A program made the position numbers and the translations under genes. Positions 2,957-14,061 of a DNA stretch of 50,793 nt are shown piece by piece. The DNA comes from a virus (lineage: Duplodnaviria; Caudoviricetes): positions 1 to 50,793 of the IMG/VR virus record IMGVR_UViG_3300049914_000028; one strand, 5' to 3'. Under the pieces are notes generated by a model that searched no databases, was not told where the DNA came from, and saw only the letters and a program-made list of their open reading frames with translations. Each line of letters begins with the position of its first letter. The stretch's first letter is position 1.

Positions 2957-5197
2957 ATGGAAGATACATACCGAATAACTGCCCTTGAAGATAAGTATTT
3001 CCGCGTTCCCTGGTATGTGACCGTCACAGCCGGGACGACAGGGACGATTACGCCTCCCACGGGCGGGACGATTGTGATGAACCAGTGGGGGGGCAGTGTT
3101 ACGGCAAAGTCAAGCACAATTACAATAAAGGAAAGGCCGACCGGGATTCCGGCAAAGAACGCTGGCGGGGTCGATATAACCGTCACCATGAGCATCACGG
3201 GCGCATGGGCGTTATCAGATACGCCATCCGCCTATCCCATTGCAATCATCTATTATTACGATGTCAAATTGTTTAATTTCGATAGGAATTATTCTCTCGA
3301 TACGGTTACATCCCCAAGTATTCATGCCGTTGGCGACAGCATCGCCGCCTCTATCTCCGACGCCGACACAACTCATTCCCCTGACGGAAATTCAGTCTTT
3401 GATGCCTTGGCGCTTAAGGCTCCTCTTGCAAGTCCTGTCTTTACGACGCAGATCACCACGCCGCAGATTGTTGCCCCTGCTGCATCCCTGATTATTAAAC
3501 CGACCACAGATGGTACGACGGCCATTCAGATTACTGACAAGGATGGGAATGCAATTCTGGATGTTGACACAACGAATAACAGGATATGGATTCATGGTTC
3601 GGGTAGTACTTTCATTGTTACATCTGATGGAAGTGTTAATAATCTGATTGGTAACTTTGAGTTAAATAACGGAGCGGATGCTGCGATAGGTTTTCAATAC
3701 TATGGTTATCCGGCATCCTACGCAACTGATTACTTAAAAAGCACGGTAGCAATTTATGGAAGTAATGTGGCTGCTTATCTTAATATTATAGCGGGCGGCA
3801 CTGCGGCCATTAGATTTTTAATTGGCGGGTGGAATGCTGTTACTTATGAAAAGATGCGAATTACTTCCGGCGGCAAAATCGGCATGTCCGGTTTCACCGC
3901 CCCACTCTCCGACCTCTGCGTTGATAGTCTTCATGTAGGCAGCGAAACCGATGCAGGGGCAAACAATCTCCTGGTGGATGGGACAATCAACAAGGTAACG
4001 GTCACGGCCCCTGCTACTTCAGCCACTCTTACCGTTGCCGATGGCAAAGAATTACATGTCGAAGACACCACTCATGTCAATCAAGACTTGACCACTGACG
4101 CACAGCCGACATTCGCGCAACTTGCAGGACTTGGCGCACCTGACGCCAACGGTGAGGCTATCCGACAGACGGCGAAGATCACAGAGGCATTGCTTGAAAG
4201 TGCGACGGATTTGAAGCACGCCATTGCAACGGTCTCCGCGCCCATCTCCGTAACAGGCCAGGCCCTTTCCCTCGTCAACGACGCAGCGGCAGCCGTGACG
4301 GAAATCGACACCGGCGCGCTGGCGAACTCAGATACGGTTGTTCCGACGAGTAAGGCGGTGCTAAGCAATCTACCTCATAGGAACATCATCATCAATGGCG
4401 GTTTCACTATCAATCAACGTGCCTATGTTTCTGCTGCCGCTCTTGCGGCAGGAGTCTATGGACATGATAGATGGAAGGGTGGCGCAGGTGGCGGAACTTA
4501 TTCCTTTACTCAACTTGCAGGCCCTACAACTATAACCATTGCCGCCAACAAGACACTCATTCAAGTAATCGAAGATGTTAATGTTTATGGTGGAAGTTAT
4601 GTGCTGAGTTGGACCGGAACCTGTCAGGCACGTTACGCCATAAATAGTGCAACGCCCGCAGGTGCCTATGCCGCCAGTCCTATCGTAATCACAGGGCAAA
4701 CAGCGGGAACAACCATGTCTGTCGAGTTTGGGAATGGTGCTGCTTCGGGAACCCTTGGATTAGTACAACTTGAACTCAGCCCGGTTGTAACACCCTTTGA
4801 GTTTAGACTTTACCCGCAAGAATTGGCATTGTGTCAGAGGTATTGCCAGTTGTTAAAGCCGGGGAATGCCGCAATACAGGGATTTAAGTACGCAACAAAA
4901 TACATAGATGCGATATTAACCATCTCGCCCATGAGAGCCAACCCAACTTTAGTCGGTAATGACATTTTAGCATGGAAAGGCGCAGCTAATCCCGCACTTG
5001 GCGAAATAAATGCTTACAGTATTCTTGGGAGTGCATATTTAACCATAACCGGAGCTTTAACTGTCTCAATACAATTTGTTAGTACAACTTCATTTATATT
5101 TAGATGTGTGGCAGCAACATCGTTTACTGGAACGGATGGTGACTTGGTACTAATGAACGCTTATTCTGCCACCGCCGTACTAAGTGCCGAATTATAA
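2957..5197 (+). CDS. Tail fibre / receptor-binding protein
   Basis: 746 aa, A/T/G-rich. Fibre-type motifs 'LALKAPLASPVFT', 'EKMRITSGGKIG', 'RNIIINGGFTINQR…DRW', 'VQLE…TPFEFR…ELALCQRY', ending 'SAEL'. Confidence 0.85.
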   Translation: MEDTYRITALEDKYFRVPWYVTVTAGTTGTITPPTGGTIVMNQWGGSVTAKSSTITIKERPTGIPAKNAGGVDITVTMSITGAWALSDTPSAYPIAIIYYYDVKLFNFDRNYSLDTVTSPSIHAVGDSIAASISDADTTHSPDGNSVFDALALKAPLASPVFTTQITTPQIVAPAASLIIKPTTDGTTAIQITDKDGNAILDVDTTNNRIWIHGSGSTFIVTSDGSVNNLIGNFELNNGADAAIGFQYYGYPASYATDYLKSTVAIYGSNVAAYLNIIAGGTAAIRFLIGGWNAVTYEKMRITSGGKIGMSGFTAPLSDLCVDSLHVGSETDAGANNLLVDGTINKVTVTAPATSATLTVADGKELHVEDTTHVNQDLTTDAQPTFAQLAGLGAPDANGEAIRQTAKITEALLESATDLKHAIATVSAPISVTGQALSLVNDAAAAVTEIDTGALANSDTVVPTSKAVLSNLPHRNIIINGGFTINQRAYVSAAALAAGVYGHDRWKGGAGGGTYSFTQLAGPTTITIAANKTLIQVIEDVNVYGGSYVLSWTGTCQARYAINSATPAGAYAASPIVITGQTAGTTMSVEFGNGAASGTLGLVQLELSPVVTPFEFRLYPQELALCQRYCQLLKPGNAAIQGFKYATKYIDAILTISPMRANPTLVGNDILAWKGAANPALGEINAYSILGSAYLTITGALTVSIQFVSTTSFIFRCVAATSFTGTDGDLVLMNAYSATAVLSAEL

Positions 5198-10488: not shown

Positions 10489-11457
10489 TCATGCCGCCTT
10501 CGCCTCGCCCGCTGCCCATTTACAAAGTTCATCATAGTCTGATCGCAGAATGTCGGCGGTATGTTCAATTCCCATCTTCCCTAAGTGCGCCTTGATTTCC
10601 TCGGCGGAAAATTCAGTCCCCCGCGCAATCGCCCAAAGTCGTTTTTTCTGAGCTTCGGAAATTTTCATTTTGTCTATCGGAGGGGGAGCCTTTTCAACCG
10701 TTTCGGTCTTTTCAGCATCCGTTGAAATGGGGGGTTCGGGTGAAACATCCTCGATGGTGGTTTCAACAATCGGCGGTTCGTTCTTCTTTAACAGGTGCGG
10801 GGGCAAATCCTCAACGTCCTGGGTGAATAAATCCGACGCCGCCGTACATGTCAACGTAGCGTCAACGTGCGCCCTTTTCTTCGCCATCTTCAGGATGGTA
10901 TTGTAATAATCAGCGGGATCTTCGTATTCCGTTTTCCCCGCAGCTTGGTTCGTAATGGATGGATCATCCGATTTGAATTTCTCTCCGCATCCCCCCTTCT
11001 TCTTGAAGCAAATGAATCCCCCTCCGTATTCCGCCTTCCCGGTTATAATCGCCTCTTTCCCGCACTTCGGGCAAATCCTTTCGGCCTTGCGGTATCGGTA
11101 TTTACTTTCCATTGTGGAGGCGGAACCCACTCCCTGACCGAAGATAGCGCCGGTGGGGATATGGGTAAGGGTACAGGTCAACCGATACTCCCGGTGTCCG
11201 TTAGATAGACTCTTTTCCGTGATGTCATAGGACGGGGCAAGGCGGAACGTGGTGGAGAGCTTTTCTGCTCCGGGTTTCAGTAGGGTTGGTTTGTCGCCGC
11301 ATCCGGGGATTTTCCCGTAGTGCTCCCCCTCGCGCATGACGGATTTCATTACGTCCTGGATGAGTTCAACCTGTTTGACGATTCTCTCGGGGGTCATGGC
11401 GTAATCTTCGTAATTTATGACTGCCCTGTTCTCAATAACCGCTACCGCGTTTTCCAT
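10489..11457 (-). CDS. Putative recombination / single-strand annealing protein
   Basis: 'HYGKIPG..KPTLLKPGAEKL…NTILKMAKKRAHVDATL…SDLFTQDVED'. Lies near an exonuclease in the early arm; function inferred. Confidence 0.6.
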   Translation of the reverse strand: MENAVAVIENRAVINYEDYAMTPERIVKQVELIQDVMKSVMREGEHYGKIPGCGDKPTLLKPGAEKLSTTFRLAPSYDITEKSLSNGHREYRLTCTLTHIPTGAIFGQGVGSASTMESKYRYRKAERICPKCGKEAIITGKAEYGGGFICFKKKGGCGEKFKSDDPSITNQAAGKTEYEDPADYYNTILKMAKKRAHVDATLTCTAASDLFTQDVEDLPPHLLKKNEPPIVETTIEDVSPEPPISTDAEKTETVEKAPPPIDKMKISEAQKKRLWAIARGTEFSAEEIKAHLGKMGIEHTADILRSDYDELCKWAAGEAKAA

Positions 11458-11473
11458 TCTTTATGCCTCCTTT

Positions 11474-12091
11474 TTAAATTCCGTCAGATTCAACTAACGG
11501 TATTTCCTGTATTATTTTCTTTTTTCTTCCGCCTCTTGCGCCGTAATATCTGGCTGAATAACAGGTCAAAATCTTCATAATATCTTCGGCCAATTCTTCT
11601 TCATATTTCTTTTCTTTTGTTTCGATTATTTCCACAGTCACTTCAAGGTTTGTAAAAATAGCATCAAGATATTCATAACCGAAACGGGCAAGCCGATCTT
11701 TGTATTCAATTAAAACCCTTTCAACCTTACCTTCAAAGCACATTTTGATTAATTTATGGATTCCAGCCCGTTTTTCATTTATCCCACTGGCTATTTCATC
11801 AATCAAAGCGTATTTATACCCCTTACTTTCCGCATATTTACGAAGTCTATCCTTTTGCCGTTCAAGATTTTCTTTCTGTTTTGCAGTGGAGCATCTGGCA
11901 TAAATCATTGTTAGTTTTTCTTGTTTAACCTTTTCAACGCCCATATAGGAATCTAAATCCTCTTGACGGAAACGCCTATGCTTTCCAGTCGTGCTAAATG
12001 ATTTGATTTTGCCGTTATTCGCAAGTGTTTTTAGTGAGTTAATCGAAACACCAATATATGCACTTGCTTCTGTAATTTTGTAGATTTTCAT
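11474..12091 (-). CDS. tnpA: IS607-family serine recombinase TnpA (MerR-type HTH plus resolvase catalytic domain)
   Basis: 'YKITEASAYIGVSINSLK…GKHRRF', 'IYARCST..QKENLERQ', 'EIASG', 'YKDRLARFG', 'ELAEDIMKILTCYSARYYGARG'. Confidence 0.92.
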   Translation of the reverse strand: MKIYKITEASAYIGVSINSLKTLANNGKIKSFSTTGKHRRFRQEDLDSYMGVEKVKQEKLTMIYARCSTAKQKENLERQKDRLRKYAESKGYKYALIDEIASGINEKRAGIHKLIKMCFEGKVERVLIEYKDRLARFGYEYLDAIFTNLEVTVEIIETKEKKYEEELAEDIMKILTCYSARYYGARGGRKKKIIQEIPLVESDGI

Positions 12092-12660
12092 TTAATACCC
12101 CACTGTTCAACCATTGCTCTGGCCACGCCAGCGAAAGTAACACTTCTATCCCTTTTTCGTGTCGGACTTGGACCCATTTTCCATATCCGATGTTCACGAC
12201 CTGAGGCTTTATTAGTTGGTTGCAATTTCGGAAGATTGTGGAGTGCAAATCCTGTTTTCTTGGTTTCCCCATGACCAAAATCATACGGTTGAATATATTG
12301 CACATTGGGAAGATACTTAAAAATAACGCTTGTAGGATTTTCCAAAGCAATTTTATCGCTATGTTCGATTGCTAAATCCCAAAGATCGCAAGTCCATTTT
12401 ATTGCCTGCTGTCGCTTGCTATTTAATGGCATTCCCTTCCCGTACCACCTATTTCCACTCAATGACATTGCGGTACAATCAGGGTGGAGGATGATTAAAT
12501 CCCATTTGCGATGGGGGATTACAGTCATAATATCATCTTGAAAGTGCCAATCAGGATTACCGCGAGTAGGGAGTAAATCGCAGGAATAAGCCTCATGGCC
12601 CTTATCACGGAAAGCCTTGCAAACTACCTGGCTTTCCTCACATCCAACCAGAACGATCAT
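12088..12660 (-). CDS. Small phage-type C5 DNA cytosine methyltransferase-like protein
   Basis: 'VLVGCEESQ…AF…GHEAYSCDLLP', 'WDLIILHPDCT' (PPC-like), 'LENP', 'RSVTF.GVA.AM.EQWG'; ATGA-coupled to tnpA. Confidence 0.7.
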   Translation of the reverse strand: MIVLVGCEESQVVCKAFRDKGHEAYSCDLLPTRGNPDWHFQDDIMTVIPHRKWDLIILHPDCTAMSLSGNRWYGKGMPLNSKRQQAIKWTCDLWDLAIEHSDKIALENPTSVIFKYLPNVQYIQPYDFGHGETKKTGFALHNLPKLQPTNKASGREHRIWKMGPSPTRKRDRSVTFAGVARAMVEQWGIK

Positions 12661-12812
12661 TTTCCCCCCATTAATTTTTTAATAAATTTTTCATTAGCAT
12701 CCATAATTTTTTGCATATCTTCAACCGATATGACTTTTTCCAGTGGTTCAAAAAAGTAAATTTTCTCGTTTTCTGTTTCAAAATATTCCTTCGTAACCTT
12801 AATGATCTTCAT
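12657..12812 (-). CDS. 51-aa ORF (MKIIKVTKEYFETENEKIYFFEPLEK…), not in the ORF track
   Basis: Directly behind the element promoter with RBS AAGGGG; ATGA-coupled to the next gene. Confidence 0.6.
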   Translation of the reverse strand: MKIIKVTKEYFETENEKIYFFEPLEKVISVEDMQKIMDANEKFIKKLMGGK

Positions 12813-12827
12813 GTCTTATTCCCCTTT

Positions 12828-12856
12828 AATATAACAATTATTCACCTGAAAGTCAA
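12828..12856 (-). promoter_or_regulatory. Sigma70 promoter at the element's left end
   Basis: TTGACT-17 bp-TATATT. Confidence 0.75.
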
Positions 12857-12895
12857 GTGAATTTAACCGATTTATAATGTATTTGTTGAAATTAA

Positions 12896-13285
12896 TCAAG
12901 CAGTTTCAACCTCCTCCGTTTCGTACTTATTTCCCGACACTAACCCCTCTAAGATTTCCGTAACTACTGCTTCGTGCATGTCGTTTGCCTTATCATCTGC
13001 GTCTATTTCCGATATATACCACGGACTTTCAAAATAAACCTGTCGGTTGACATTGATGTCGTGATAACGCACATCTTCGGGATCGGTGTGAAACGCCATT
13101 GTTTCGTAATACCTCTGATTACCAACAGTTTCAAAACCATTCTTTCCGCTGAATTCCATTAAGCCAACAGTACTTACCACTATCTCAATATCATTATGAT
13201 GCAGTAGGGTATTTCTTCTAAATCTACACCTATTGGCACAGATAAAATGTCCCGCCCATCCCCTTTCTGTGCGTTTAATGTCCAT
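12896..13285 (-). CDS. Hypothetical phage protein
   Basis: 'RTERGWAGHFIC…C.FRRNTLL…YYETMAF'; likely start MDIK, TAATG-coupled to the exonuclease stop. Confidence 0.65.
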   Translation of the reverse strand: MDIKRTERGWAGHFICANRCRFRRNTLLHHNDIEIVVSTVGLMEFSGKNGFETVGNQRYYETMAFHTDPEDVRYHDINVNRQVYFESPWYISEIDADDKANDMHEAVVTEILEGLVSGNKYETEEVETA

Positions 13286-14061
13286 TATGCCGCCTCCAAT
13301 CCTGTTTTCGCGTACCAGAAATCCACCAGCGCATTGAAGCACTTCCAACCCTTACTTAAATCCTCGTCCGGTATCCAGATAAGTCGTGACTCCGCCGTTA
13401 TAGAGTTTACATAAAGTATTCCGCACTTCTTTACGCCGATATTACATCCCCCAAGTCCGATTTCGTAAGCAGCCAACTGCATCGCGTGTTCATCCCATGT
13501 CTTGAGTGTGGCGATGTCCTTGTCTGTTGTTTTGATGTCGATCAGGTGCGTGTTGCTATGGAGATCGACTTTCCCTCCGTATCTGTCCGTGGCAAAGGAT
13601 TGTTCGCAAATCCAGCTATTTTGACAGCCGCACTCGGCATCAAGGGTCTCGCAGGCGGAGATGTAATAACGAGCCTGTTCTTCATCCCACATTCGTGGTC
13701 CCTCAAATCCCGCCTGCACCCATGCGTGAATCTGCGTCCCCCGTTCTGCGGCCTTCCTTGCCTGTTCCTTTGAATCTGCCTTGATACGCGCCATGAAGTC
13801 CGTGTCGTTCTCCCCTTCGAGCCGTGGCAGGGTAAGGGCGGCCATTATCGCCTGATCTATCATCCAGTTCGTCAGACCGGGAGCGGCGGCGCAACGGATA
13901 ATGCTCGTAACGGATGGGACAAGCCCCTCTTTCCGGGCATCCCGTAGGGTTGTCGGACGTTCCGCACCGTTCTTTCCAATCATTGTATAGGCGGGTTCGC
14001 CAGTTTTCCTATACCAATGACCGGCCTCCTTGCCATGATCTGCGGTTAGAATTTCACTCAT
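13285..14061 (-). CDS. PD-(D/E)XK exonuclease (phage recombination exonuclease, Cas4/RecB-like fold)
   Basis: 'VPSVTSII', 'RGTQIH', 'E..F…YGGKVDL…IDIKT', 'MQLAAY'. Confidence 0.85.
   Translation of the reverse strand: MSEILTADHGKEAGHWYRKTGEPAYTMIGKNGAERPTTLRDARKEGLVPSVTSIIRCAAAPGLTNWMIDQAIMAALTLPRLEGENDTDFMARIKADSKEQARKAAERGTQIHAWVQAGFEGPRMWDEEQARYYISACETLDAECGCQNSWICEQSFATDRYGGKVDLHSNTHLIDIKTTDKDIATLKTWDEHAMQLAAYEIGLGGCNIGVKKCGILYVNSITAESRLIWIPDEDLSKGWKCFNALVDFWYAKTGLEAA

Follow-up and report, generated by a model that had tools for sequence, protein, structure and literature searches.

The window, a 50,793-nt stretch of viral DNA (Duplodnaviria; Caudoviricetes) that spans the whole of the complete IMG/VR record IMGVR_UViG_3300049914_000028, contains a 1,444-bp block that we interpret, at a probability of roughly four in five, as a mobile element of the IS607 family without tnpB and with passenger DNA. 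The element is built as one operon for three proteins: a 51-aa protein (orf51), a cargo protein in a variable slot, and the transposase TnpA. Coordinates refer to the minus strand of the window. An initial annotation, made from the letters of the window alone, had proposed such an element, and its individual claims are taken up where the evidence bears on them.

The block at 11466..12909 is AT-rich, with a G+C content of 0.31–0.42 against ~0.47–0.55 in the neighboring genes, and occurs once in the window. AGGAGG stands at each edge (12915..12910 and 11471..11466), and the 1,444 bp are the stretch between the two copies plus one copy. Joining base 12910 to 11465 gives the predicted unoccupied site, in which the upstream open reading frame (ORF) runs in frame to the tail ...YETEEA-stop and AGGAGG lies 8 nt ahead of the ATG of a 322-aa gene. 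In the occupied site the same frame ends ...EEVETA-stop at a TGA inside the element (12898..12896), and the tnpA stop (11476..11474) is followed, after 2 nt, by the right AGGAGG. The element holds three ORFs, joined by ATGA overlaps (12657–12660 and 12088–12091). The initial annotation had described this arrangement—an AT-rich block between AGGAGG repeats, a clean ...YETEEA end and a restored AGGAGG upon deletion, a new stop supplied by the element, a ribosome-binding site regenerated 2 bp past the tnpA stop, and a 51-aa ORF and a C5-methyltransferase-like gene coupled through ATGA ahead of tnpA—and the sequence, the G+C profile and the ORF coordinates agree with it on every count. A 6-nt repeat alone carries little weight; the limits gain theirs because the family comparison and other metagenomes break at the same edges.

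TnpA places the element in the IS607 family. The protein scores 183 bits against NF033518, the curated NCBI model for IS607 (cutoff 110), over residues 8–190, and carries the Pfam domains PF12728 (helix-turn-helix, HTH; residues 4–50) and PF00239 (Resolvase; residues 62–178). A profile search of the PDB returned as its best solved relatives the catalytic domains of the ISC1926, MJ0014, ISC1904 and IS1535 transposases, with YARCST of the window protein aligned to YARVSS of ISC1926 TnpA (6dgc, E = 1.2e-35). The model score and these structural matches confirm the original assignment to the IS607 serine recombinases. The absence of tnpB, likewise claimed at the outset, extends to the family: the right end lies at most ~10 nt from the tnpA stop in every aligned copy, and because it overlaps the end of tnpA, no aligned copy holds tnpB. 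Chen et al. (2018, eLife) describe tnpB as usual in the IS607 family and dispensable for transposition, for which tnpA alone suffices.

To define the family, we collected 99 loci with TnpA relatives at 71–100% amino-acid identity: 80 on viral contigs, taken as the best of 120 confirmed ones, and 19 on contigs of metagenome-assembled genomes, which are labeled with many different phyla. Full-length hits to both orf51 and tnpA occurred in 62 copies, the window counted, of which L097 was dropped; merging seven of the remaining 61 that have identical flanks left 54 distinct insertions, and flank counts use 53 of these because the right end of L104 was not recognized. The left end (LE) is conserved in all 61 copies, and the flanks of the 54 insertions are unrelated. 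Conservation in the alignment runs from TTnnAACTGCTT..., immediately after GG, to ...GAATCTAATGGAATTTAAAAAGG(AGG) in the right end (RE), and the sequence immediately outside is unrelated from copy to copy. The LE start, TTnnAACTGC, is not the reverse complement of the RE finish, TTTAAAAAGGAGG, so the element has no terminal inverted repeats. AAATC recurs three to four times at ~10-bp spacing in 30 of the 53 LEs, more weakly in the LE variant of the window, and the REs carry GAATC and GGAATT 10 bp apart. According to Chen et al. (2018, eLife), IS607-family ends lack inverted repeats, contain short direct repeats and have GG at the termini as well as in the target, which is not duplicated; the ends of the present family match that description.

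Independent metagenomes contain the same element in other surroundings. We aligned contigs of runs X1, X2, X5 and X7 to positions 10800..13600 of the window. One contig of X2, labeled groundwater, differs from the window at 11 of 872 nt over 12044..12915 and then diverges; another piece departs from the window sequence at 11467, and the X2 flank beyond the right end reads AGGAGG, seven nucleotides, ATG. Contigs of X5, labeled wastewater, cover 11468..12118, 12109..12746 and 12766..12912 and are unlike the window beyond. Divergence at 11467/11468 and at 12912/12915 indicates that this element, its cargo included, also occurs elsewhere between other flanks. X7, labeled soil, covers tnpA and the LE with orf51, but not the cargo of the window. 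X1 is probably the source sample and hence not independent; none of its contigs joins across the element, a result of no weight because contigs lose rare variants. Runs X3, X4, X6 and X8–X24, which contain 0.20–0.41 of the sampled words, are not used as evidence.

Presence and absence of the element within one phage lineage are documented for a sister copy, L100/L101. A search with the product of its downstream gene gave nine contigs, on all of which this protein is 100% identical: two are occupied (the contigs of L100 and L101) and seven are empty (L151, L152 and L155–L159). The occupied contigs differ from the empty ones by a 1,575-bp insertion that includes LE, orf51, cargo and tnpA, and their flanks show 5 mismatches in 1,000 and 4 in 1,500 positions. 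The empty site reads ...CATAG[AAGGA]CCTAAGTAATG, with a ribosome-binding site 9 nt ahead of the ATG, and the 5-nt AAGGA, with GG within it, fits either side of the junction. AAGGA also belongs to the RE that all copies conserve, including copies with no AAGGA in the left flank, and is therefore shared sequence rather than a target duplication. Insertion changes the tail of the upstream ORF from ...NIEGPK-stop to ...NIEGGCNCL-stop. A search for the empty site in relatives, suggested with the original proposal, was therefore answered in part: this sister provides a junction of the predicted kind, and the phage of the window itself provides none. Queries for empty sites of the sisters L042, L061 and L055 returned only occupied copies or distant relatives, and that for L082 found no close relative.

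Junction sequences across the family point to ribosome-binding sites. The left flank ends in GGAGG in 43 of the 53 insertions and in GAGG or xxGG in the others. On the right, the AAAAAGG of the RE is followed by AGG in 41. Of the remaining 12, 11 continue with A (four ACC, three ATG, two ACG, one AAA and one AAG), and L066 has GGG. Seven insertions with a non-AGG right flank (the L100 type), together with L066, all have GGAGG on the left, and six whose left flank does not end in GGAGG all carry it on the right, a pattern that fits a GG-A-GG junction in which either GG may act as the crossover. As the RE finishes in ...AAAAAGGA-GG and GG precedes the LE, the junction resembles a Shine-Dalgarno sequence. 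For a quantitative comparison, targets were rebuilt on the GG-A-GG model, the register being the analyst's choice and one that lowers the count, and GG sites in the same flanks served as controls. Of the 53 targets, 35 have GGAGG at the crossover, compared with 465 of 27,658 control sites (1.7%; binomial P = 4e-49), and 41 have GAGG, compared with 6.3% (P = 8e-39). A start codon 2–14 nt downstream that opens an ORF of at least 40 codons follows 24 of the 48 targets with enough flank, against 18.9% of controls (P = 1e-6). The left flank and the RE share 3–13 nt, mostly (A)(A)GGAGG, with 4 of the 53 script calls clearly spurious. Shine-Dalgarno-like sites shortly before a start codon, GGAGG among them, are strongly enriched as targets.

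This preference could reflect either a choice made by the recombinase or the survival of harmless insertions. On the second account the element is the same and does no active targeting: TnpA needs only GG, and in packed phage genomes the intergenic insertions that restore a ribosome-binding site are the ones that survive. We rate this account only slightly below an even chance. It agrees with Chen et al. (2018, eLife), in which IS607 inserts at (G)GG with no further relationship to the target. It also accommodates the 10 of 53 left junctions that have only GAGG or xxGG, the single GG within AAGGA at the verified empty site, and the 24 of 48 testable insertions that lack a qualifying start codon within 14 nt. 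Against it stand the length of the sequence shared at the junction, usually 5–8 nt and equal to the RE tail (A)AGGA(GG), and the roughly 40-fold excess of GGAGG over control GG sites. Neither the shared tail nor the 40-fold excess separates the two accounts, because real ribosome-binding sites share that sequence. Accordingly, the non-disruptive targeting of ribosome-binding sites first proposed for the window is upheld as an enrichment, whereas the preference behind it may stem from survival. The most far-reaching version—that the RE mimics a ribosome-binding site and TnpA thereby picks such sites as targets, that orf51 is a new partner replacing TnpB, and that the slot captures DNA-modification genes—strikes us as possible and, on balance, unlikely. 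If true, the element could insert harmlessly at nearly every gene junction of nearly every phage and would act as an exchange platform for anti-restriction genes.

The middle gene of the element is a replaceable slot that mostly holds DNA-modification genes. Between the orf51 stop and the tnpA start lie 429 to 1,905 nt, a gap that one or more co-oriented open frames fill in every copy. Cargo families were assigned through BLASTP clusters and Pfam searches of 20 representative proteins and counted per distinct insertion by the main gene. N6_N4_Mtase (PF01555) leads with 15 of 54 insertions, followed by MT-A70 (PF05063) and PAPS-reductase-like proteins (PF01507, phrog_424) with 9 each, C5 DNA methylases (PF00145) with 5, phrog_757 with 3, the window among them, and D12 methylases (PF02086) with 2; Mom (PF25680), Dam (PF05869) and a 158-aa unknown protein occur once each, and 8 insertions carry several small ORFs, mostly without a family. 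A methyltransferase or Mom, from seven families in all, is thus present in 36 of the 54. Further genes in the slot include YopX in L130 and a combination of N6_N4_Mtase and PAPS-reductase-like genes in L123. Tabulating the cargo of orf51 and TnpA homologues had been suggested at the outset; it found orf51 at 78 of the 99 loci and varied, mostly modification cargo in the 54 distinct insertions, and the family counts lend support to the original interpretation of a cargo transposon that may spread DNA-modification genes.

Cargo identity and transposase phylogeny are nearly uncoupled. Cargo labels require 30 changes on the TnpA tree, where the minimum is 9 and the mean of shuffled labels 34.8, so cargo is scattered close to randomly. 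In three sets of copies an identical TnpA accompanies different cargo; one set pairs the window with L122. The DNA of these two is 89% identical over the stretch that starts at the left AGGAGG and ends 11 nt beyond the orf51 stop, and 91% identical between the tnpA ATG and the right AGG; the sequence in the middle is unrelated. The two tnpA genes differ at 56 codons, all synonymous and none nonsynonymous, so the identity of the proteins reflects strong selection rather than recent exchange. A conserved recombination site flanking the cargo was not found across the copies. Cargo and tnpA overlap by 4 nt in some copies and by 14 nt in others.

Individual copies add further detail. Homing-endonuclease-like genes are nested in the slot of L105 (HNH; 3232–3567; one of the small-ORF group) and of L129 (NUMOD3 with a restriction-endonuclease-like domain; 3400–3996); these are mobile genes inside a mobile element. 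L088 and L090, both 1,698 bp with a 281-aa C5-methylase cargo, have unrelated flanks and AGGAGG a few nucleotides before an ATG, and seem to represent separate insertions of a single element type. L054, L055 and L279 have an identical TnpA and a common downstream gene and right flank; L054 and L055 differ in LE, in cargo (MT-A70 vs. five small ORFs) and in left flank, and the five-ORF cargo of L055 recurs in L128 within other flanks. This pattern suggests that recombination within the element reshuffles phage genomes. L051 has a hybrid LE, part of one LE type and part of another.

The mosaic copies L054, L055 and L279 and the hybrid LE of L051 are what would be expected if transposition had been lost and the unit were a phage module passed between co-infecting phages through homologous recombination, with TnpA retained as a resolvase or invertase. 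We regard such a history as improbable: it sits poorly with 54 insertions that break to the nucleotide from unrelated flanks, with the clean presence and absence in the L100/L101 lineage, with near-identical copies in different flanks and different habitats, and with the IS607-type features retained at both ends. A still narrower unit, in which only tnpA and the RE are mobile while orf51 and the methyltransferase-like gene already resided in the phage, would suit the ordinary-gene status of homologues of the 190-aa cargo protein in related viral contigs (L002 and L003; 38–47% identity) and a cargo G+C of ~0.41, near that of the upstream phage gene, yet it has next to no standing, being contradicted already by the co-occurrence of LE, orf51, cargo and tnpA at ~99% identity in different flanks of two other metagenomes, by the conserved LE at which flank homology breaks ahead of orf51, and by the sister insertion, absent from seven contigs, that spans all four parts.

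Several observations weigh against reading the block as a mobile element with exchangeable cargo. Neither viral nor metagenome contigs yielded an empty site for the phage of the window in searches with the flanking proteins, which may not have covered near relatives of the window: among viral contigs the 322-aa protein found 1 locus and the 130-aa protein 39 loci, none of them syntenic, and among metagenome contigs the 322-aa protein found 10 loci, the best 83% identical in amino acids over a partial match. The aligned sequences, all of them assembled contigs, showed neither a join across the element nor a circle junction. Of the 99 loci, 21 lack orf51: 14 have less than 700 nt upstream of tnpA, 2 are partial, and 5 (L083, L091, L108, L109 and L120) have at least 3 kb upstream with neither orf51 nor the LE motif. 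L097 has orf51 without a recognizable LE, and the RE of L104 is not recognizable either. At the junctions, 12 of 53 on the right and 10 of 53 on the left are not GGAGG, four insertions (L076, L114, L129 and L131) fall outside both simple registers, and the Shine-Dalgarno association as a whole could be a survival bias, since IS607 itself needs only GG. The cargo family counts are extended from the 20 Pfam-scanned representatives by BLASTP clusters, and the 190-aa cargo protein matched no Pfam or NCBIfam model, PF00145 included, at E up to 0.01.

The five loci without orf51 or LE motif are not all alike. L091 has a co-oriented 362-aa ORF that runs 14 nt into tnpA, an overlap also seen in normal copies, and L083, L091 and L120 may represent a variant architecture. 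L108 and L109 lie on one 58,583-bp viral contig with a tnpA near each end, which might mean two copies or a contig that is terminally repeated.

Table 1. Features of the element and its flanks in the window, listed from upstream to downstream on the minus strand
Feature	Position	Strand	Remarks
Upstream flanking phage gene, 130 aa	12896..13288	-	Last residues and stop now derived from the element
Left AGGAGG	12910..12915	-	End of the upstream gene and predicted former Shine-Dalgarno sequence; putative GG crossover core of the left junction; same (G)GAGG/GG junction in the family alignment
Left end (LE), noncoding, 97 nt	12813..12909	-	Starts TTGAAACTGC; contains the new stop of the upstream ORF, short AAATC-like repeats and the putative promoter
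Promoter-like TTGACT-17-TATATT, TG-extended	12828..12856	-	Best match in the region, 10/12; candidate promoter of the orf51-cargo-tnpA operon
orf51, 51 aa, unknown function	12657..12812	-	Hallmark of the element family; upstream of tnpA in 78/99 loci
Cargo, 190-aa C5-cytosine-methyltransferase-like protein, phrog_757	12088..12660	-	PHROG match, fold and motifs
tnpA, 205 aa, IS607-family serine transposase	11474..12091	-	N-terminal HTH and resolvase-type catalytic domain
Right end (RE)	11466..11535	-	Within and just past the tnpA 3' end; ends ...GAATCTGACGGAATTTAAAAAGGAGG; inner limit 11535 approximate
Downstream flanking phage gene, 322 aa, phrog_10048	10489..11457	-	ATG 8 nt past the right AGGAGG

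The cargo protein of the window resembles C5-cytosine methyltransferases. It matches phrog_757, named 'DNA methyltransferase', at E = 8e-51 and has at least 7,991 homologues, a few of them named DNA cytosine methyltransferase by NCBI. Its structural model reaches a predicted local distance difference test (pLDDT) score of 88.1, and the closest structures in Foldseek are the catalytic domains of DNMT1, M.HaeIII, DNMT2 and DNMT3 (E = 5.6e-5 to 1e-3; TMq 0.45–0.6); searches of the PDB by sequence, a profile search included, gave no match. P59 and C61 (Pro-x-Cys) and E106-N107-P108 are invariant in 25 sequences and are, we assume, C5-methyltransferase motifs IV and VI. Given the fold matches and the invariant motifs, the protein is C5-methyltransferase-like in fold. 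The corresponding label in the initial annotation is thus sustained by fold and by two conserved motifs, though Pfam does not recognize it. The 190-aa protein contains no recognizable target-recognition domain.

The 51-aa protein is conserved and nameless. Its first 40 residues are strongly conserved, and its family comprises 1,258 database clusters, none of which bears a name; with that many distinct clusters, the element family is not rare. Pfam, PHROG and NCBIfam gave no family for it, and its Atlas clusters are only 'hypothetical'. The AlphaFold2 model (pLDDT 92.6) has three short strands and one long helix, for which Foldseek returned no match at E ≤ 0.001 and a wide VIA-align search a best Z of 3.1. 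Predicted as a complex with TnpA, orf51 gave an ipSAE of 0.45 against 0.00 for the best of three controls, which is weak support and a lead only; three runs share at least 81% of contacts, with a partner pLDDT of at least 82. Among 80 solved complexes, 58 passed the mark used for such predictions, as did 2 of 110 mismatched pairs, but scores of 0.60 or less came from only 7 of the 80 solved complexes and from both passing mismatches. That orf51 may be a regulator or cofactor of transposition is our working guess, made with the odds somewhat against it.

A promoter in the LE was also part of the original proposal. The TTGACT-17-TATATT motif is present and is the best in the region, whereas the number of promoter-like sites there, 6, is at chance level (mean of 6.0 in shuffled sequences). 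A TTGCTT or TTGACT paired with TATATT occupies the same LE position in the family alignment. Around the −35 hexamer lies an inverted repeat, GGTTAAAA-N9-TTTTAACC, with clear 8-bp arms in 23 of the 53 LEs (e.g., L048 and L100) and a matched change in both arms in L128; it is a possible operator for self-regulation. The window has a different and weaker palindrome, imperfect and overlapping the promoter (12862..12840), which we rejected as an operator since 38 of 100 shuffled sequences reach it.

Homologues of the 130-aa gene occur on 39 viral contigs in other contexts, and their C termini are too variable to reveal the original tail. The 322-aa protein contains Cys-x2-Cys pairs and has as its sole match phrog_10048, a family of unknown function; its earlier designation as a recombination gene found no support, having rested on an exonuclease-like neighbor. 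In two relatives, L142 and L143 (~55–67% amino-acid identity), a 258-aa exonuclease-like homologue (phrog_298) adjoins the 322-aa gene and the 130-aa gene is missing, so the 130-aa gene of the window may itself be an earlier insertion (region 12896..14061, minus strand). The L142/L143 junction has the predicted style—gene end, GGAGG, ATG—without the element.

A working model for the element can be put together from these parts. One promoter in the LE would drive orf51, the replaceable cargo and TnpA. By analogy with IS607, TnpA would pair the two ends, excise the element, probably as a circle, and rejoin it through crossover at a target GG without target duplication. Insertions lie in ribosome-binding sites of the GGAGG or AAGGA type, co-oriented with the phage genes, and do little harm, the LE stopping the clipped upstream ORF within a few codons and the RE rebuilding the ribosome-binding site downstream; in the window, the last six nucleotides of the RE (11471..11466) are placed to serve the downstream gene as its Shine-Dalgarno sequence. 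The most likely role of the cargo is to modify phage DNA and so shield it from host restriction, a benefit that would repay the upkeep of the element.

Several known systems share parts of this design. IS607, IS1535, ISC1926 and ISC1904 have in common with it a TnpA made of an HTH and a serine recombinase, the lack of inverted repeats and of target duplication, GG at the ends and in the target, and short direct repeats within the ends. The present element differs from that family in that it has lost tnpB, has gained two genes upstream of tnpA—orf51 and a swappable cargo—and has a long Shine-Dalgarno-like junction, its RE tail mimicking a Shine-Dalgarno sequence and its insertions concentrated in the ribosome-binding sites of phage genes. 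In Tn4451 and Tn5397 a serine recombinase (TnpX or TndX) likewise moves a unit of passenger genes via a circle, with joining at a fixed dinucleotide. Those enzymes are large serine recombinases with C-terminal DNA-binding domains, and the elements measure several kilobases and reside in bacterial chromosomes and conjugative elements; TnpX matches the TnpA of the window weakly (E = 9e-5). Integron cassettes resemble the slot in that a conserved platform with its own promoter takes up exchangeable single-gene units useful to the carrier; here there is no tyrosine integrase, attC or attI, the whole platform moves, and no site was found flanking the cargo. Orphan DNA methyltransferase and Mom genes of phages belong to the same families as the cargo (PF01555, PF05063, PF00145, PF02086, PF05869 and PF25680) and are expected to protect against restriction, whereas here such genes are borne on a transposable unit in many unrelated phage contexts.

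The element family is apparently undescribed. None of 50,697 deposited phage genomes contains it: the nearest transposases there reach no more than 36.5% identity and come from ordinary IS607-type insertions, one of them, with tnpB, in a Helicobacter phage, and a DNA search of the deposited phages gave only two short, chance-like matches. We found no published description of such elements in a literature search whose coverage left out most subscription journals and which is therefore no proof.

A small element that drops a ready-to-express modification gene into a phage ribosome-binding site would explain how such genes move freely between unrelated phages. Phages must evade restriction in every new host, and the element would add a transposon layer to the arms race between phages and hosts. 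For transposon biology, it represents a natural IS607 relative in which tnpB was lost, cargo was gained, and the likeness to the target extends far beyond GG. As a scarless unit that brings a promoter, restores a ribosome-binding site and needs 0.8 kb plus cargo, it could also be useful in phage engineering.

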